This document shows, one piece after another, positions 2,023 through 32,001 of a stretch of 42,267 nucleotides of DNA. This stretch comes from Thermoanaerobaculia bacterium (GTDB taxonomy: Bacteria > Acidobacteriota > Thermoanaerobaculia > Gp7-AA8): NCBI GenBank assembly GCA_023700825.1, contig JAMPYE010000002.1, positions 1 through 42,267 on the forward strand, written 5' to 3'. The position numbers were made by a program, and so were the translations under genes. The notes below the pieces were generated by a model. That model saw nothing but the letters and a program-made list of their open reading frames with translations. It had not been told where the DNA came from and ran no database searches. The first letter of the stretch is position 1; each line of letters opens with the position of its first letter.

Positions 2023-2151
2023 TGGATTCTCCCGCCCATCATAACTCCGCAGGACGTCCGGATGTTTCGGGGAGAGAGATTTGGGCCCGATGGCCCACGA
2101 CAACGGTGGCTGAAGGAGTGGCGACTCCGGGAACGTCACAGGTTCGTGTGC

Positions 2152-2298
2152 GGAAACCGGAATGAAGAATGTCGAATGAAGAATGAGAAATGAAGAAGTA
2201 GGCCGAGTCCGCAGTCCCTTCAGCACCGTCCGGTCGCGGTCTCGCTCCCGGCGGCTTCATTCTGCATTCCGCATTTGACATTCTTCATTTCGGGTTCC
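2152..2298. repeat. Heptamer-periodic inverted repeat, GAATGAA type (arms 2152-2198 and 2255-2298, 56-nt GC-rich spacer)
   Basis: The left arm is GGAAACCGGAATGAAGAATGTCGAATGAAGAATGAGAAATGAAGAAG. The reverse complement of the right arm is GGAACCCGAAATGAAGAATGTCAAATGCGGAATGCAGAATGAAG. About 36/44 positions are complementary by hand alignment. Confidence 0.85.
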
Positions 2299-2340
2299 GG
2301 GCGTCGACATTGCGGGGGATTCAAGCCGGATGTCGTAACG

Positions 2341-2979: not shown

Positions 2980-2992
2980 GGGGGCGTATTTG

Positions 2993-3200
2993 GTTGTTAG
3001 TTGTTAGTTTTTAGTTGTTAGAAAGCAGAGATTGACGACGGAGATGGCGGTTAGGGCGTTAAGACGCCCTGAAGTTAGAAGTTAGAAGTTAGAACGATGA
3101 ATGTTGAATCCAGAATTGTCCTCTTTCTGGATTCAACATTCATCGTTCTAACTTCTAACTTCAGGAAGTGCGTGTCTAACAACTAACAACTAACAACTAC
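2993..3200. repeat. Nested 208-nt palindromic element: (GTTGTTA)n ... AGAAGTT-type 40-bp hairpin ... (TAACAAC)n
   Basis: 2993-3021 reads GTTGTTAGTTGTTAGTTTTTAGTTGTTAG and pairs with 3176-3200 (CTAACAACTAACAACTAACAACTAC). The inner arms 3069-3115 and 3125-3164 are perfectly complementary over 40 nt, except for one extra GAAGTTA unit on the left. Confidence 0.9.
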
Positions 3201-7666: not shown

Positions 7667-7787
7667 GTGTGGCGCAGGCACTCCTGCCTGCGCGTCGCCC
7701 CGCACAGCGGGGCGACCGTATTCTGTGGGATGAGCCGAAAGCGGCGGCGCTCCGCGCCGCGCGCAGACAGGAGTGTCTGCGCCACAC
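7667..7787. repeat. 121-nt structured inverted-repeat element (28-nt arms, 26/28 match) enclosing two GC hairpins
   Basis: The arms are 7667-7694 GTGTGGCGCAGGCACTCCTGCCTGCGCG and 7760-7787 CGCGCAGACAGGAGTGTCTGCGCCACAC. The internal hairpins are GTCGCCCCGC-aca-GCGGGGCGAC (7694-7716) and GCGGCGC-tcc-GCGCCGC. Confidence 0.8.
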
Positions 7788-7811
7788 GCGGTGGCGCTTT
7801 CGCACTCCAAA

Positions 7812-8489
7812 TCAGAACTTCGAGATCACCTTCCCTGGCGGCGTGTTCTCGAGGAACATATTCAGCGCGGCGAGGACGACCTTCTCGTGATGTGCGCGGT
7901 CGCCGGCGGCGCCGGCGAGGTGGCCGACGGCGCAGCCTTCCCACGTCATTCCGCGCGGCGGGCGCGTCGACTCGCTCGCGGCCGGGTTCGCGCTGATCAC
8001 GATCGTCGGCACGCCGCGCGACTCGATCTCGCGCGCGAGGTTCGAGATCGACCGGTGGCACGTCTCCGGGCAGCCCGCCATCAGGATTACCAGCTTCGTC
8101 TTCGACTTCTCGACGTTGTCCGCGATCTCGGGGAAGGTCTTCTCGTAGAGCTCCTTGAGCCGCGTCGTGAAGCCGTACGAGTAGTGCTTGTCGTTGACCG
8201 CGCCGATGACCCCTTTCGCCGCGAGCTCCTGGAGCGTCGCGAGCGGGAAGACGATGTTCGGGTCGCCGTCGGCCTCGGTGTGGTCGTAGTGATGGTGCGC
8301 GATCTTGAAATCGGCGACGTTCGCGTCACCCGCGATCACGCGGTAATCGATGTCGCCCGGATCCTCGGTCGCAAACGCTGCCTGGCCGGGCGCGTAGACG
8401 CCGGTCGCGCAGACGAGAGTCACCGTCGCGGAGGCGAGGTCTTTGTCGTACGGAGTGAAAGGGATGCAGCGTCGCGAGATATTGAGCAT
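7812..8489 (-). CDS. Glycine/sarcosine/betaine reductase selenoprotein B (GrdB) family protein, short Cys-containing form
   Basis: Motifs DYRVIAGD, HHHYDHTEADGDPNIVFPL, LQELAAKGVIG, and a redox-type pair in LMAGCPETCHRS followed by GVPTIVI. No in-frame TGA. Start is uncertain: ATG 8489 (MLNISRR) or ATG 8549 (MTQTGR). The track start at 8645 would overlap the upstream gene. Confidence 0.6.
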   Translation of the reverse strand: MLNISRRCIPFTPYDKDLASATVTLVCATGVYAPGQAAFATEDPGDIDYRVIAGDANVADFKIAHHHYDHTEADGDPNIVFPLATLQELAAKGVIGAVNDKHYSYGFTTRLKELYEKTFPEIADNVEKSKTKLVILMAGCPETCHRSISNLAREIESRGVPTIVISANPAASESTRPPRGMTWEGCAVGHLAGAAGDRAHHEKVVLAALNMFLENTPPGKVISKF

Positions 8490-8583
8490 GGGGTTCGCTT
8501 TCGCAGAGGGATTTCGGGGCGGGCTCGTCGCCCGCCCCGTTTGGGTCATGAGATCCGGCGCGTGGACGCCGGAAGAGGCGATG

Positions 8584-9096
8584 TCAGGCGAGCTCGCGCA
8601 GCGTTTCGATGATCTGCGCGTTTTCAGGCTGCTCACCGATGTCATGGACGTCGATGTAGGCGACCTTGCCCTGTTTGTCGATGACGAAGATGGCGCGTTC
8701 GTTGATGCCCTTGTCGTCCATCCAGACCCCGTAGAGCTTCGCTACGTGCCCCTTCGGGTGGAAGTCGGCGAGCAAGGGATACGAGTTGATCCCGCCGAGT
8801 GATTTTGCGAATGCGACGTGACTGGGGATGCTGTCGACCGAAATGCCGAAGACCTCGGCATCATACCGCTCGAAGTCGGCGTGTTCCGCCTCGTACGAGG
8901 GCATTTGGACCGTTCAGACAGGGGTCCAGTCGAGAGGATAGAAAGCGATGACCACGTTCTTCTTGCCGTGGAAGTCGCTGAGTTTGACCTTCTCGCCGCC
9001 ACGATGACCGGGAAGCTCGAAGTCGGGAGCCTTGTCGCCGACTTTGAGCGTCGCGGTCTTCGACGCGACGGAGGTCCTGCCTACCTTGACACTCAT
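8584..9096 (-). CDS. AhpE/Bcp-type peroxiredoxin with in-frame TGA (8914-8916) at the peroxidatic Cys position; probable selenocysteine peroxiredoxin
   Basis: Track ORFs 8914..9153 and 8584..8904 are in the same frame and are separated only by TGA plus 3 codons. The joined product is [30 protein letters not shown]...[43 protein letters not shown]...[10 protein letters not shown]...[15 protein letters not shown] 9096 is preceded by AAGGAGGA. Confidence 0.75.
8843..8903 (-). promoter_or_regulatory. Candidate bacterial SECIS region downstream of UGA 8914-8916
   Basis: On the mRNA, 13 nt after the UGA there is CCUC-GUAC-GAGG, extendable with a bulged C to G-C and U-G pairs, which places a GU-containing loop 18-21 nt after the UGA. 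A second hairpin, AUGCCGA-GGUCU-UCGGCAU (8843-8861), has a GGUC loop like E. coli fdhF but lies about 52 nt after the UGA, further than usual. Neither was scored with a SECIS model. Confidence 0.3.
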
Positions 9097-9199
9097 GGGA
9101 GGTCCTCCTTGGTTGAGATGACTGCAAGCAATGAGTGCGATGTCCACGTCCATCGCGGGAGCAGCAGCTCGCCAGCATGGATTCTATCGCACGAGAGCA

Positions 9200-9234
9200 G
9201 GCGATAGGCGAGGGGCGAGAGGCGAGGAGCAGGC
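9200..9234. repeat. (GGCGARR)x4 heptamer array ending in GCAGGCC
   Basis: GGCGATA GGCGAGG GGCGAGA GGCGAGG AGCAGGC. It has the same architecture and the same strand as 4924-4958. Confidence 0.8.
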
Positions 9235-9264
9235 CGAGTAGTGTCGGCGGAGGGGAAGAGGCAA

Positions 9265-9366
9265 TTCTCAATTCCTCATTCCTCATTCGACATTCTTCAT
9301 TTCGGTTTCCGCTCCTTCACCAGAACCGAAATTTCGAATGTCGAATGAGGAATGAAGAATGAAGAA
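9265..9366. repeat. Heptamer-periodic inverted repeat, GAATGAA type (arms 9265-9310 and 9323-9366, 12-nt spacer)
   Basis: The reverse complement of the left arm is GGAAACCGAAATGAAGAATGTCGAATGAGGAATGAGGAATTGAGAA. It matches 2152-2187 at 34/36 positions. The right arm is GAACCGAAATTTCGAATGTCGAATGAGGAATGAAGAATGAAGAA. Confidence 0.9.
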
Positions 9367-9466
9367 AAGGGAAACGGCATGCTTCCAGCCAGTTCGGATC
9401 GAGGTCTTCTCTTGGCCGGATTTTCGGCCGGTACACTCCGCGGAGTAAAATCACCCCATCGGCACA

Positions 9467-10366
9467 ATGGCGATCCCTGGCAACGGCGGTGACCGGCTCA
9501 TCCTGGGCATGGCTGGCGGCGGAGACTTCCGGGTCATCGCGGCGCAGACCGCGGAGTCGCTCGAGCTGGCCCGGCTGCGGTGCGACCTGTCGCCGGTCGC
9601 GGCCGCGGCGCTGGGCCGCGCCCTTACGAGCGCGGTCCTGCTCGCGCGCCTCCTCGACAAGCAGGTTCCGGAACAGCACGTATCGCTCCGTCTCGAGGGA
9701 GGCGGCCCGATCGGCGGCGTGATCGCGGAAGCGACGATCGACGGGCGGATCCGCGGCTGTGTCGGGAACCCGCAGTACGAGGACACCGCGTGCGACGTCG
9801 GCCTCGCGGTCGGCTCCGGCGGCAACCTCACCGTGATCCGCAAGTCGCCGCCTCTGATGAAGCCCTACACCTCGCAGGTCCGGCTCGTCTCGGGCGAGAT
9901 CGCCAAGGACGTCGCGCACTATCTCGCGACGAGCGAGCAGATCCCGACCGCGGTCCTGCTCGGCGTGCTGAATCGCCCCACGGGCGTGGCCTCCTGCGGC
10001 GGAATCGTGATCCAGGCCTTTCCGCACACGACCCCGGCGGAGATCGAGGCGATGGAGAAGGCGATCCTCGACGCGCCGCCGCTTTCGTCCCTTCTCGCCG
10101 AGCTGCCGATCCACGACGCCGTGGCCCGCGTCCTCGGCCCCGTCGGCTACAAGCAGCTCGATCCGTCGTTCGACATCCCGATCTCCTACCACTGTACCTG
10201 CTCGCGGGAGAAGGCGCTTCGGATGTATCGTTACTTTCCGCCGCAGGAGCTCGGCGAAATGATTCGCGAGGCGAGCGACACCGAGGCCGTCTGCCACTTC
10301 TGCGGCGCGAAGTACGTGTTCACGGCCGACGACCTGCTGGGCCTGGACGTTGGCGAAGGGAACTGA
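9467..10366 (+). CDS. hslO: Hsp33 redox-regulated chaperone
   Basis: Full-length Hsp33 pattern, including the C-terminal zinc/redox switch CTC...CHFC (YHCTCSREK ... AVCHFCGAKY). ATG at 9467. Confidence 0.9.
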   Translation: MAIPGNGGDRLILGMAGGGDFRVIAAQTAESLELARLRCDLSPVAAAALGRALTSAVLLARLLDKQVPEQHVSLRLEGGGPIGGVIAEATIDGRIRGCVGNPQYEDTACDVGLAVGSGGNLTVIRKSPPLMKPYTSQVRLVSGEIAKDVAHYLATSEQIPTAVLLGVLNRPTGVASCGGIVIQAFPHTTPAEIEAMEKAILDAPPLSSLLAELPIHDAVARVLGPVGYKQLDPSFDIPISYHCTCSREKALRMYRYFPPQELGEMIREASDTEAVCHFCGAKYVFTADDLLGLDVGEGN

Positions 10367-11494: not shown

Positions 11495-11624
11495 GGAAAC
11501 ACAATGAATGCAGAACGCAGAATGCAGAACGATGAATGTAGAAATCGGAACCGAAGGCAGCCACTGCCACGGGTTCCCTTTCTACATTCATCGTTCAGCA
11601 TTCAGCATTCATTGTTTTCTTCCG
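11495..11624. repeat. Heptamer-periodic inverted repeat, GCAGAAY/GATGAAT type, with central GGAACC...GGTTCC and GGCAG-cca-CTGCC hairpin
   Basis: The left arm is ACAATGAATGCAGAACGCAGAATGCAGAACGATGAATGTAGAAA (11501-11544). The reverse complement of the right arm 11579-11615 is ACAATGAATGCTGAATGCTGAACGATGAATGTAGAAA. The arms differ by exactly one heptamer plus A/T changes. Confidence 0.9.
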
Positions 11625-11667: not shown

Positions 11668-12735
11668 ATGACGGACAAGCTTTCCTACCGCGACGCCGGG
11701 GTCGACATCGACGCGCAGGACGAGGCGCTTCGCGAGGTTCGGCGCATCGTCAAGAAGACCTACACGCCCGGCGTGATGTCGGACATCGGCTCGTTCGGCG
11801 GCCTCTTCCGCGGCTCGTTCCCGGAGATGCAGGCGCCGATCCTCGTTTCGTCGGCCGACGGCGTCGGGACGAAGCTCGCGGTCGCCAAGGCGATGAAGGT
11901 GCACGACACGGTCGGCTACGACCTGGTCTGTCATTGCGTCAACGACATCCTCGTTCAGGGTGCGCGCCCCCTCTTCTTCCTCGACTACTTCGCCTCCGGC
12001 AAGCTCAACCCCGGCGTGATGACCGACGTCGTGAAGGGGATGGCGAACGGCTGCCGCGAGAACGACTTCGCGCTGATCGGCGGCGAGACGGCAGAGATGC
12101 CGGGCATGTACTCCGAAGACGAGTACGACGTCGCCGGTTTCATCGTCGGTGTCGTCGACGAGAAGCATCTCATCACCGGGAAGAACGTCCGCCAGGGCGA
12201 CCTCGTCATCGCGCTCCCCTCGGTTGGGCTCCACACGAACGGCTACTCGCTCGCGCGCAAGGTACTGATCGACAAGTGCGGGCACGACTACCAGACGATC
12301 GTCCCCGAGATCGGCGGCAAAGTGGGTGAAGTCCTGCTCGCGCCGCACGTCTCGTATCTCAAGCCGCTGCTGCCGCTGGTCCAGGAGTCGCTGATTCACG
12401 GGATGGCGCACATCACGGGCGGCGGCCTAACCGACAACGTGCCGCGCGTCCTTCCCGCCGACTGCGACGTGCAGATCCGCCTCGGCTCGTGGCCAGTGCT
12501 CCCGATCTTCCGGTACATCTTCGAGAAGGGTGGCATCGAGGTCGAGGAGATGCTTCGCGTCTTCAACATGGGCGTCGGGATGGTGCTGATCGTCGCTCCG
12601 GAGGCGGTCGAGCCGGTGACGAAGCGACTGCTGTCGTACGGCCAGAAGTACTTCTTCATCGGAAACGTCGTCGCGGGGAGCGGCAAGGTGGTCTACGACC
12701 ATCCCCCTGCCGGCTTCGCGAGCTGGATCCGCTGA
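11668..12735 (+). CDS. purM: Phosphoribosylformylglycinamidine cyclo-ligase (AIR synthetase)
   Basis: Motifs YRDAGVDID, GGLF, SSADGVGTKL, DYF, GGETAEMPG, HITGGG. Confidence 0.95.
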   Translation: MTDKLSYRDAGVDIDAQDEALREVRRIVKKTYTPGVMSDIGSFGGLFRGSFPEMQAPILVSSADGVGTKLAVAKAMKVHDTVGYDLVCHCVNDILVQGARPLFFLDYFASGKLNPGVMTDVVKGMANGCRENDFALIGGETAEMPGMYSEDEYDVAGFIVGVVDEKHLITGKNVRQGDLVIALPSVGLHTNGYSLARKVLIDKCGHDYQTIVPEIGGKVGEVLLAPHVSYLKPLLPLVQESLIHGMAHITGGGLTDNVPRVLPADCDVQIRLGSWPVLPIFRYIFEKGGIEVEEMLRVFNMGVGMVLIVAPEAVEPVTKRLLSYGQKYFFIGNVVAGSGKVVYDHPPAGFASWIR

Positions 12736-15496: not shown

Positions 15497-15731
15497 TCGC
15501 ACGATACTCCTTTCGTTACGGTGTCACGGGTCGGCTGCGGCACGAGTCGAGGAAGTACAGCAGCGAGCCGTTCGGCGACGTCGTGGTGTCGCGGACGAGG
15601 AGGTTGTCCGATGGAGTCTACGTGGAGGTTGGTGGCGAAGAGAAGTCGCATTAACTTCTGCGCGGAACGAGTTCGGTGCGCCTAACGACCCAGCTTCAAA
15701 ACGGGAGCGCCAGCTGGCCAACGTCAATCGT

Positions 15732-15796
15732 CTAACAACTAACAACTAACAACTAACAACTAACAACTAACAACTAACAACTAACAACCAACAACT
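15732..15796. repeat. Tandem heptamer array (CTAACAA)x9
   Basis: Eight perfect units and one variant unit (CCAACAA). The array ends 8 nt from the enoyl-CoA hydratase stop (15804). The same unit occurs at 2993-3021 and 3176-3200. Confidence 0.95.
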
Positions 15797-15803
15797 CCCC
15801 CGC

Positions 15804-29370: not shown

Positions 29371-29436
29371 GTGCAACATTCTGCCGTATACTCCGTATCG
29401 GATCAATAGTACGAAATAGACTATTTGAGGCAGGCC

Positions 29437-31287
29437 ATGAAGACCACGAGAATTCGCGTCACGTTCGTCCTCGTCGCAGCCGCGACGCTCACCACGCTTT
29501 CCGCCGTCGCGGAGACGACCGCCGCGTCGCTCGTCGACTGCTGGGCCAATGCCCTCGGCGGGCGCGAGCGTCTCGCCGCCATCCGTGCCGTCGAGCGCGA
29601 AGGTGTCGTCGAGACGGGCGGGATGAAGGGCTCCGTCCACGCCTGGAGCACGGCGGCGGGCGAGCTTCGCACCGACGTCGAGCTCGGCCCCTACCGGTCG
29701 ACCGACGCCTTCGACGGGAAGCGCGGCTGGACGAAGACCGGGAGCGCCCCGGCCCACGAGCTGACCGACGCCGATCTCTCGCGCATCGTCTCCGACGCCT
29801 ACCTCGAGAGCATGTCGCCCTTTTTCGCCGACCGGATGAAGGGCTCGACCACTCTCGTCGAAGCGACCGACGGGCCTCGTCTCGTGATCGAGCCCGTGGG
29901 CGGGCTGCCGGTGACCGTGCGCCTCGATGCTGAGTCGTGCCGCCCCGTTTCGATCGAGCAGCCCGAGCGCGATCGGACGCTGCGCGTCGAGCTGCTCGAG
30001 TGGACCGAGGTCGACGGCGTGCGCTTTCCGAAGAAGCTGAGGCAGAGCACGGGCGACCTGGCGTACGACGTCGTGGTGACATACCAGTCGACCCAGATCA
30101 ATCCGGCGATCGATGACGGTCGCTTCAACGAGGATGCGGGCGCGGGCACGGGGATCTCGTGGAACGGACGCGCGAGTGCGTCGACATCGCTCGAGCTCAC
30201 GCAGAACCACCCCTATGTTCCGGTGTTCGTGAACGGAAAAGGCCCGTCGATGTTCATCCTCGACACGGGCGCCGACCTGACGGTGATCGAGAAAGGGCAC
30301 GCCGCGGAGATCGGCCTCGCGATGGAGGGGTCGATCGAGATCCGGGGCGGCGGAGAGGGGACGCTCGACGCCTCGATGATCGCGGGGCCGACCGTGAAAC
30401 TCGCGGGCCTCGAGATCCCGTCCGAGGCGATGATCGCAATCCCGCTCGGGCCGCTGAGTCTCTACGAGGGACGGCCGATGCAGGGAATCCTCGGCTACGA
30501 CGTGCTCAGCCGCTTCGTCGTCGAGGTCGATTACGCGGGCAGGCAGGTCACCTTCCACGATCCCGCGAAGTTCGCGACGCCGAAGGGTGCCCACCCGTTC
30601 GAGGTCTACTTCGACGGGAACACGCCGGTGATGAAGGGGAAGATCGGGCTGCCCGACGGTCGCTCGTTCGACGCGCGGCTGACGGTCGACACCGGAAACC
30701 GCACGGCGCTGATCCTTCATCAGCCGTTCGTCGAGGCGCATCAGCTAAGGAAGGCACTCCCGGTTCTCGCGAACGCGCCGCTCGGAATGGGGGTCGGAGG
30801 GATGACCCGACAGGATCTCGGGCGCGTGGCGTCGCTCGCGCTCGGCGAGTTCGTCATGAAGGAGCCCCTGACGAGCTTCTCGATCGAGAAGTCGGGGGCG
30901 AATGCGAATCCCGACATCGACGGCAACCTCGGCAGCGAGGTGCTCCGCCGGTTCACGCTCTGGATCGACTACGGCAGCAAGCGCATCCTTCTGCGGCCTA
31001 ACCGGCATCTCGCGGAACCGTTCGAGTACGACATGAGCGGCCTGACGCTGGCTCAGCGCGACGCGTCAGGGAAGGAGCTCGCCGTTCTGCACGTGCTTCC
31101 CGGCTCGCCCGCGCAGGATGCGGGGGTGCTGAAAGGTGACGTCATCGTCGGCGTCGACGGAGCGGCGCCGCCGGAGCTCGAGGCGGTGCGTGCGAAGCTC
31201 GGCCAGCCGGGCGGCGAAGTGCGACTCGGGCTCCGGCGCGCCGGCGGCGAAGTCGTGGTCACGGTCAAGATGCGGCGGCTGATCTGA
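29437..31287 (+). CDS. Secreted retropepsin-like aspartyl protease (two DTG domains) with C-terminal PDZ domain
   Basis: ATG 29437 (MKTTRIRVTFVLVAAATL signal peptide). ILDTGAD and TVDTGNR motifs. PDZ motif GSPAQDAGVLKGDVIVGVDG. The ~230-aa N-terminal domain is unrecognised. Confidence 0.8.
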   Translation: MKTTRIRVTFVLVAAATLTTLSAVAETTAASLVDCWANALGGRERLAAIRAVEREGVVETGGMKGSVHAWSTAAGELRTDVELGPYRSTDAFDGKRGWTKTGSAPAHELTDADLSRIVSDAYLESMSPFFADRMKGSTTLVEATDGPRLVIEPVGGLPVTVRLDAESCRPVSIEQPERDRTLRVELLEWTEVDGVRFPKKLRQSTGDLAYDVVVTYQSTQINPAIDDGRFNEDAGAGTGISWNGRASASTSLELTQNHPYVPVFVNGKGPSMFILDTGADLTVIEKGHAAEIGLAMEGSIEIRGGGEGTLDASMIAGPTVKLAGLEIPSEAMIAIPLGPLSLYEGRPMQGILGYDVLSRFVVEVDYAGRQVTFHDPAKFATPKGAHPFEVYFDGNTPVMKGKIGLPDGRSFDARLTVDTGNRTALILHQPFVEAHQLRKALPVLANAPLGMGVGGMTRQDLGRVASLALGEFVMKEPLTSFSIEKSGANANPDIDGNLGSEVLRRFTLWIDYGSKRILLRPNRHLAEPFEYDMSGLTLAQRDASGKELAVLHVLPGSPAQDAGVLKGDVIVGVDGAAPPELEAVRAKLGQPGGEVRLGLRRAGGEVVVTVKMRRLI

Positions 31288-31296
31288 GCGGAGCCC

Positions 31297-32001
31297 TCAC
31301 GACGGCTCCATCATCGCGTCGATCGCGGCATCGACGTGAATCGCCGTCGTGTCGAGGAACGGGACGCCGTTGTGGCTCTCCTGTCGCAGGATGAGCGGCA
31401 GCTCGGTGCCCGCGAGAATGATGCCGTCGATGCCTTCGCGAAGGCGAATGTTGTCGACGATCGTCAGCAGCCGGGAGCGCGTCTCCGGAAGAAAGAGACC
31501 GGGAATCAGCTCGTTCAGGTAGATCTCGTGAATCCACTTCCGCTCGCTCTCCTCGGGGAGGACGAGCGCGATTCCGCGCGGCTCGAAGAGGTCGGGATAG
31601 AAGCGCGATCCCATCGTGTAGCCCGTGCCGAGGATCGCAAGACGCGTCAGCGATCGCTTTTGCGCTTCTGCATAAGTGGCCTCGACGATGCTGAGCAACG
31701 GGAGTGGCGAGCGCTCGACGAGGGCAGGAAAGACGATGTGCGCCGTGTTCGCGGCGAGAAGCGCGAGATCGGCACCCGCGCGTGCGAGCGATTCGATGGC
31801 CTCCGTGAAGCACGACGCGACGAAGTCGAGATTGTCGACGGCGAGCGCGTCGAGGAGCGGCCGCAGGTCGACGCTGTGGATGATGACGCGCGGGTTGTTG
31901 TCGCGGCCCGTGCGCGCCTGGTAGCGCGCCAGAAGCGAGCGGTAGTAGTCGATCGTCGACTCCGGGCCGATTCCGCCGACGATGCCGAGAACGCGCGTCA
32001 T
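31297..32001 (-). CDS. Aspartate/glutamate racemase family protein (atypical active-site motifs)
   Basis: C-terminal part of track ORF 31297..33204. ATG 32001 (MTRVLGIVGGIGPESTIDYY) overlaps the upstream stop (ATGA). The family motifs are present but read AANTAH and AGTELP, not CNTAH and GCTE. Confidence 0.8.
   Translation of the reverse strand: MTRVLGIVGGIGPESTIDYYRSLLARYQARTGRDNNPRVIIHSVDLRPLLDALAVDNLDFVASCFTEAIESLARAGADLALLAANTAHIVFPALVERSPLPLLSIVEATYAEAQKRSLTRLAILGTGYTMGSRFYPDLFEPRGIALVLPEESERKWIHEIYLNELIPGLFLPETRSRLLTIVDNIRLREGIDGIILAGTELPLILRQESHNGVPFLDTTAIHVDAAIDAMMEPS

Follow-up and report, generated by a model that had tools for sequence, protein, structure and literature searches.

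We analysed a stretch of 42,267 nucleotides (nt) from a Thermoanaerobaculia bacterium of the Acidobacteriota (GenBank assembly GCA_023700825.1, contig JAMPYE010000002.1, positions 1 to 42,267), referred to below as the window, and in particular a peroxiredoxin gene, prx, that is divided in two by a TGA codon. The gene lies on the minus strand, is followed there by a PrdB/GrdB-like gene and is divergent from hslO on its other side. Two minus-strand open reading frames (ORFs), 8914..9153 and 8584..8904, make up the region. An earlier sequence-only reading had stated that they share a frame and are parted only by a TGA and three codons, and the sequence confirms this: between them stand the TGA at 8916..8914 and the codons ACG GTC CAA, followed by the ATG at 8904. 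When the segment 9096..8584 is translated as a whole, it comprises 171 codons with a lone internal stop, at codon 61, and yields a product of 170 residues (aa). Full-length cysteine (Cys) homologues begin at the same position as the ATG at 9096, with the motif MA[VI]x[VI]GRTS, and the strong ribosome-binding site formerly proposed for this ATG is found as a Shine-Dalgarno-like stretch just ahead of it (Table 1). In a six-frame scan of the window for TGA codons with coding-like flanks on both sides, only two sites emerged, the one at 8916..8914 and another at 31299. The TGA at 31299 (minus strand) is an ordinary gene end, and what looks like a coding frame beyond it runs antisense to the gene 29425..31287.

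We next characterized the product of this read-through. With Cys put in at codon 61, the 170-aa chain scored 132.1 bits on the Pfam AhpC-TSA family (PF00578; cut-off 26), and its residues 19-148 span profile positions 1-124 of 124. The match thus runs end to end and confirms that read-through gives a complete peroxiredoxin, as had been claimed. The active-site motif P-x3-T-x2-[C/U] is present as P54, T58 and U61 within YPLDWTPV[U], the distal arginine R134 is invariant in the homologue alignment, and the residue-61 column aligns with the peroxidatic Cys of solved peroxiredoxins (AhpE and Prx structures), in agreement with the earlier placement of the TGA exactly at the peroxidatic Cys. TGA also terminates many Pfam-confirmed genes in the window, for example PurM and Hsp33, showing that the genetic code is standard. 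On these grounds, and on the comparative evidence given below, 9096..8584 is very probably one gene for a 170-residue AhpC/TSA peroxiredoxin whose UGA codon 61 is decoded as selenocysteine (Sec). No cysteine is encoded anywhere in the 170-aa product; it would therefore be a 1-Sec peroxiredoxin, with residue 61 as its sole redox-active residue. Selenoproteins of the Prx (TxxU) family are well established, and one member of the family has been verified by experiment (PMC13188914, PMC1794560, PMC12013277). The kind of bacterial selenoprotein is thus already known, and what is new here is a member of a clade that lacks a curated model.

The sequence-only reading had proposed to align orthologues and to see whether the column holds Cys or TGA, and this comparison gave the outcome expected for a selenoprotein. 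Over all collected genes, the peroxidatic column contains TGA in 97 and a Cys codon in 55 (TGC in 35, TGT in 20), and never TAA or TAG. The TGA genes are spread over six phyla: Acidobacteriota, Chloroflexota, Eremiobacterota, Myxococcota, Planctomycetota and Bacillota. Among GTDB species representatives, 80 loci were retrieved, about 45 of them with TGA at the column and the remainder with TGC or TGT. The TGA loci were found in Thermoanaerobaculia, Pyrinomonadaceae/Blastocatellia, Eremiobacterota, Anaeromyxobacteraceae, Anaerolineae, Planctomycetota and Bacillota, those of the Anaerolineae including the isolate Ornatilinea apprima P3M-1. Likewise, a metagenome scan gave TGA at the column in most of its best 50 loci. 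The nearest relatives are metagenome-assembled genomes (MAGs) of Thermoanaerobaculia, and the relatives with TGA genes are not assembly duplicates of one sequence, as their identities range from 73 to 95%. Scattered stops or frameshifts in orthologues had been named in advance as a sign of decay. In the relatives checked in full we found the internal TGA at the column and the terminal stop, and nothing else, with the sole exception of a metagenome contig (L137) carrying three stops.

Selection on the coding sequence was estimated from the ratio of nonsynonymous to synonymous substitution rates (dN/dS), in 13 pairwise comparisons with dS between 0.6 and 2. For codons 3-60 as for codons 62-169, dN/dS was 0.08-0.33, indicating that both halves of the gene are under purifying selection. 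The earlier argument that a chance nonsense mutation was unlikely and that both halves looked intact is well supported by these values, together with the recurrence of the same TGA.

Public annotation has dealt poorly with this family. Protein searches returned dozens of distinct 106-aa clusters, 74-95% identical and all cut at the same place. These C-terminal fragments carry names such as 'redoxin domain-containing protein' or 'peroxiredoxin'. The same searches returned full-length homologues of 169-182 aa (69-75% identity) with Cys at the column, and also shorter, more distant homologues with a tryptophan (Trp, W) there (P0007, P0015 and P0020). In these three, the W is an in-frame stop on a short contig, which gene calling under code 4 turned into Trp. 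Read under table 11 at L167 254..715, the catalytic codon is a stop. In the gene calls of L001 (Acidobacteria MAG GCA_016184115.1), prx is split into pieces of 60 and 106 aa. Such cases, like the dozens of 106-aa fragments, bear out the remark that Sec peroxiredoxins are routinely mis-annotated. We found no curated model that names this peroxiredoxin clade.

We then considered the RNA downstream of the UGA, with columns numbered from the U of this codon (window coordinate = 8917 minus column). The 80 nt 3' of the UGA fold into two abutting hairpins, in a minimum free energy (MFE) structure that is identical to the centroid structure (-30.7 kcal/mol). Covariation was measured on clade-level alignments and for named structures. 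Over 32 distinct close relatives, pairing of hairpin 1 reaches 100% in the inner helix and 86-90% of cells overall, versus 26-48% in slid controls; compensatory pairs occur at columns 29-37 (CG in 28, AU in 4), 30-36 (CG in 23, GC in 9) and 21-45 (GC in 17, AU in 15). Hairpin 2 is paired in 92.6% of cells, versus 21-40% in slid controls, across 32 distinct sequences from several phyla. Four of its pairs are changed on both sides, among them G61-C69 of the window where others have C-G.

These structures set the Sec genes apart from the Cys genes. At least 7 of the 8 pairs of hairpin 2 can form in 82 of 92 distinct Sec genes versus 4 of 54 Cys genes, and the loop dinucleotide G64-U65 is found in 91 of the 92 versus 17 of the 54, a contrast that persists even for Cys genes whose encoded residues, D-[AT]-Q-V-L-G-I, are identical here. 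When synonymous codons were shuffled gene by gene, the mean z was -2.42 for Sec genes versus -0.56 for Cys genes at hairpin 1 (Mann-Whitney p 2e-15) and -2.20 versus -0.03 at hairpin 2 (p 6e-18), p-values that overstate the independence of the data because the sequences compared are phylogenetically related. For the gene in the window, the first 60 nt after the UGA gave a z of -2.9. All together, these comparisons indicate that two Sec-specific RNA structures with covariation follow the UGA.

The sequence-only reading had pointed to two hairpins that might serve as a selenocysteine insertion sequence (SECIS). Both exist in the window, but only one of them proved to be conserved: AUGCCGA-GGUCU-UCGGCAU at 8861..8843, which corresponds to hairpin 2. 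The other, CCUC-GUAC-GAGG at 8900..8889, is impossible in 15 of the 32 close relatives, which have CCG GGA UAU GAG G there, and it competes with the longer hairpin 1 that covariation supports; it was therefore discarded. In relatives with an ACC threonine codon after the UGA (L004-L006, L016, L023, L087, L089, L090, L094 and others), we also observed that ACCG at columns 4-7 pairs with CGGU at columns 77-80, so that both hairpins are enclosed in a three-way junction. In the window this codon is ACG and the helix is absent.

Table 1. Features of the prx locus in the window; columns in the last field are counted from the U of the UGA.
Feature	Position	Strand	Description and basis
Peroxiredoxin gene, complete	8584..9096	-	170 aa, Sec (predicted) at residue 61, stop codon TGA 8586..8584; translation, Pfam, homologues, dN/dS
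In-frame UGA, read as Sec (predicted)	8914..8916	-	Peroxidatic position of P54-x3-T58-x2-U61; column holds TGA or Cys codons in relatives
Shine-Dalgarno-like AAGGAGGA	9103..9110	-	6 nt upstream of ATG 9096; direct sequence reading
Hairpin 1	8904..8863	-	Columns 13-54; outer stem AUGCCCUCG/CGAG(C)GGUAU, inner stem GGCG/CGCC, loop GAACA (8886..8882)
Hairpin 2	8862..8842	-	Columns 55-75; stem GAUGCCGA/UCGGCAUU, loop GGUCU (8854..8850); abuts hairpin 1
PrdB/GrdB-like gene	7812..8489	-	225 aa, motif AG-C-PET-C-HR; Pfam GRDB E 3.5e-9; TIGR04483 PrdB 111 bits, below cut-off 300
hslO (Hsp33, redox-regulated chaperone)	9467..10366	+	Divergent from prx; position retained in L001 and in L084, the locus of the Cys orthologue

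Which of the two hairpins would recruit SelB is a separate question. We take G23 and U24 of the Escherichia coli fdhF SECIS to be contacts of SelB. The loop hexamer of hairpin 2, AGGUCU, is that of the fdhF SECIS (positions 21-26 after UGA140, NC_000913.3), and its stem of 8 bp is like that of typical SelB-binding hairpins, which have 6-8 bp (PMC4605307). Its distance from the UGA is another matter. The loop starts 59 nt after the UGA, so that hairpin 2 as it stands does not place a G-U some 20-24 nt after the UGA, as E. coli-type (fdhF) elements do: in fdhF the GU of the loop is at 23-24, whereas here G64-U65 lies 41 nt further on, beyond the range of 16-37 nt, and with a 42-nt hairpin in between. 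This 41-nt offset is nearly the length of hairpin 1, and taking out its 42 nt would bring the AGGUCU loop within one nt of the fdhF position. The likeness to fdhF would hold only if hairpin 1 is a folded spacer. Ahead of the junction, 9 nt are unpaired in the window's clade; elsewhere the number is 1-15 in all but one sequence, a looser fit.

Related hairpins bear on the same question. In related genomes, the neighbouring PrdB-like selenoprotein gene uses just one hairpin, whose GGUC tetraloop occupies columns 24-27. The genes of a distant peroxiredoxin subgroup (L139-L146) lack hairpin 2 and likewise form a lone hairpin, the A-GGC-U loop of which spans columns 26-30. Because of these single hairpins, the match of 41 and 42 nt and the conservation of the GGUCU loop, we lean, with moderate confidence, towards hairpin 2 as the putative SelB site and hairpin 1 as a folded spacer. 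Somewhat more tentatively, the clade as a whole may possess a bipartite bacterial SECIS, in which a conserved hairpin 1 of 33-47 nt would fold out and bring the distal hairpin 2 to the mRNA entrance of the ribosome.

A simpler arrangement would be that hairpin 1 alone acts as a long canonical SECIS, hairpin 2 being an accessory element (for pausing or mRNA stability, for instance) that does not bind SelB. Hairpin 1 is indeed in keeping with every constraint of the published bacterial consensus, namely a loop of 3-9 nt with a G in its first two positions, an upper stem of 4-16 bp, a distance of 16-37 nt from the UGA and an MFE of -7.5 kcal/mol or lower (PMC13188914): checked by hand, it has the 5-nt loop GAACA, an upper stem of 4 bp, a spacing of 27 nt and an MFE of -19.9 kcal/mol. 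Moreover, its structure is specific to Sec genes by the shuffling test. We nevertheless judge this arrangement less likely, since its loop begins with GA and not with the usual G[G|U], and both loop sequence and register vary between clades, whereas the sequence-level conservation across phyla belongs to hairpin 2, through G64-U65. The GGUC tetraloops used by the adjacent selenoprotein genes are also unlike the loop of hairpin 1.

Decoding as Sec has to be weighed against several results, besides the relatedness of the sequences in the group statistics. ARAGORN detected no tRNA, and hence no tRNA-Sec, in the 42 kb window. E. coli SelA, SelB and SelD had no match in tblastn searches, which covered the window together with related loci totalling 728 kb. 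A gene with an AIRS domain at 11668..12735 (plus strand), 2.6 kb from prx, was tried as a candidate SelD and rejected: it is PurM (TIGR00878, 408 bits) and reached 27.6 with the SelD model, for which the cut-off is 125. RNAalifold, run on all 42 TGA genes, gave no consensus for hairpin 1, a failure explained by the register of this hairpin, which shifts between clades and so is not position-homologous across them. ARAGORN on 167 sequences reported only tRNA-Ala and tRNA-Val. Rfam had no match over the window at gathering thresholds, and only meaningless miRNA matches between 8500 and 9200 at E values up to 10. In favour of such decoding, Sec users have been described among the Acidobacteria and Chloroflexi, with Occallatibacter riparius as one of the Acidobacteriota (PMC13188914, PMC1794560, PMC12013277).

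Three other explanations of the TGA were considered, to which we attach, taken together, a small probability beside decoding as Sec. The best of them, though in itself very unlikely, is that the ribosome inserts a standard amino acid at the UGA, whether near-cognate Trp, Cys or Arg or through a reassigned code. The failure to find Sec machinery in the 42 kb window and in the related loci (728 kb) speaks for it, as do the public gene calls that give W. These calls, however, are the code-4 artefact on short contigs described above, an enzyme with Trp as its peroxidatic residue would be inactive, and a reassigned code is at odds with the many Pfam-confirmed genes of the window that end in TGA. 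Sec-specific hairpins with a GGU loop are, moreover, what SelB-dependent recoding predicts. In related lineages the adjacent PrdB-like gene has TGA at its redox Cys and a canonical GGUC-tetraloop hairpin, an independent use of Sec.

Still less probable is a split gene, in which translation would stop at the UGA and restart at the ATG at 8904, giving chains of 60 and 106 aa that assemble without a catalytic residue. This ATG lies only three codons past the UGA and the 106-aa ORF is treated as a gene in public annotation, but it is preceded by CCCCUGUCUGAACGGUCCAA, in which there is no Shine-Dalgarno sequence. Its methionine is also conserved in the uninterrupted Cys homologues, and is thus an internal residue. 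A split gene would tolerate TAA, TAG and a variable break point, whereas the interruption is invariably a TGA and invariably at the catalytic column, and the product of a split gene would have no peroxidatic residue. The least credible explanation, a pseudogene decaying after a nonsense mutation at the catalytic Cys codon, requires a single base change (TGC/TGT to TGA) and fits the splitting of the gene by gene callers, but it is contradicted by the same TGA in 97 genes of six phyla whose fully checked members are without further stops or frameshifts, by dN/dS of 0.08-0.33 on both halves at dS 0.6-2, and by compensatory changes that maintain hairpins specific to the TGA genes.

The PrdB/GrdB-like gene is found directly downstream of prx in about 55 loci, and it is a probable operon partner of prx and a candidate redox partner. 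In this family the motif is G-[C/U]-P-x-x-C-HR, with Cys in the window's clade. The first Cys codon is TGA in 10 Pyrinomonadaceae-type loci (L013-L016, L018-L023) and in 4 of Anaeromyxobacteraceae type (L025, L122-L124), and the cassette of prx and the PrdB-like gene thus holds one or two selenoproteins depending on the lineage. The window is syntenic with L001 over FabH, Hsp33, prx, the GRDB-like gene, an amidase, an aldo-keto reductase and more genes. In L084 the order Hsp33, prx, GRDB-like recurs, with a prx orthologue that has Cys. As hslO keeps its position in both, the locus looks like an oxidative-stress module.

Other elements were observed between the genes. A GC-rich hairpin, GGGGCGGGC-GACGA-GCCCGCCCC, lies at about 8515..8540 (minus strand) between the prx stop and the PrdB-like start; as it has no T-run, it is not a classical intrinsic terminator. 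A promoter and terminator scan of 7700-9500 gave no promoter-like site and two terminator-like sites, which is chance level. Long palindromes occupy AT-rich intergenic regions at 2141..2299, 2980..3022, 3066..3165, 9264..9380, 11498..11618 and 15718..15803. Their building blocks are 7-nt repeats in periodic order, either of GAATGAA or of CTAACAA type, and none of them matches Rfam. The arms of one (3078..3162) are perfect over 38 nt, one is located between hslO and prx, and one consists of about 10 tandem CTAACAA units.

A working model may thus be suggested. When a ribosome reaches the UGA, the structured stretch of 80 coding nt that follows would recruit SelB with Sec-tRNA(Sec). In the finished protein, Sec61, placed by P54, T58 and R134, would attack a hydroperoxide and be converted to a selenenic acid, judging from the chemistry of the family. 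The oxidised Sec61 would then be recycled by an external thiol or selenol partner, since the product has no cysteine of its own to act as reductant. The most obvious candidate for this reductant is the downstream PrdB/GrdB-like CxxxC protein, with thioredoxin-type reductants as alternatives. The PrdB/GrdB-like Sec/Cys protein may be the dedicated reductant of the 1-Sec peroxiredoxin. The conserved location of a cysteine-free 1-Sec peroxiredoxin beside a PrdB/GrdB-like protein with either Sec or Cys, depending on the lineage, suggests that the two form a system for the reduction of peroxides.

The locus has implications beyond this gene. This gene and more than 90 relatives, from Acidobacteriota of soil and sediment, Chloroflexota and other phyla, would be publicly stored as truncated 'redoxin' proteins or as proteins with a spurious Trp. 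Such mis-annotation would hide a common selenoenzyme and lead to an underestimation of selenium use in these phyla, which a curated model of the clade would correct. At the RNA level, should SelB bind to the distal GGUC hairpin, the locus would be a natural case in which an intervening folded hairpin satisfies the strict spacing between UGA and SECIS, a solution that bears both on SECIS prediction and on the engineering of Sec insertion.

Among known systems, the closest in kind is the Prx family of the selenoproteome surveys (PF00578, TxxU; Zhang et al. 2006, PMC1794560; PMC13188914), with which the product has in common the AhpC/TSA fold, Sec in PxxxTxxU and many Cys homologues. The present member differs from those surveyed in coming from an uncultured lineage of Acidobacteriota. 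The published selenoproteome of Anaeromyxobacter dehalogenans includes three Sec peroxiredoxins and a 'proline reductase' selenoprotein (PMC1794560), and we infer that these genes match the pair of prx and PrdB-like genes in the Anaeromyxobacteraceae-type loci (L025, L122-124). The experimentally verified PrxU of Eubacterium acidaminophilum (NCBIfam NF040737) has, as predicted here, Sec in place of the peroxidatic Cys of a thioredoxin-fold peroxidase. It is also the best NCBIfam match of the product, but the score of 86.5 bits is far below the cut-off of 270 and rules out the product as a PrxU equivalog. This score, together with a PrxU profile of 233 positions as compared with the 170 aa found here, points to a different peroxiredoxin subfamily.

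Among solved structures, the top match by score was a typical 2-Cys peroxiredoxin, BAS1 (101 bits), versus about 82 bits (E about 4e-22, residues 16-157) for AhpE of Mycobacterium tuberculosis (PDB 1XXU, 1XVW and others). The latter is a short 1-Cys enzyme that resembles the product in its length, in the lack of a C-terminal extension with a resolving Cys and in the block LL[AS]DF.P.G.V...YGV, present in both. One homologue is named AhpE by UniRef. The difference lies at the catalytic residue, where AhpE has Cys and the product is predicted to have Sec. At the level of decoding, the arrangement is like that of fdhF and of the bSECISearch model in that the structure lies inside the coding sequence, just after the UGA.

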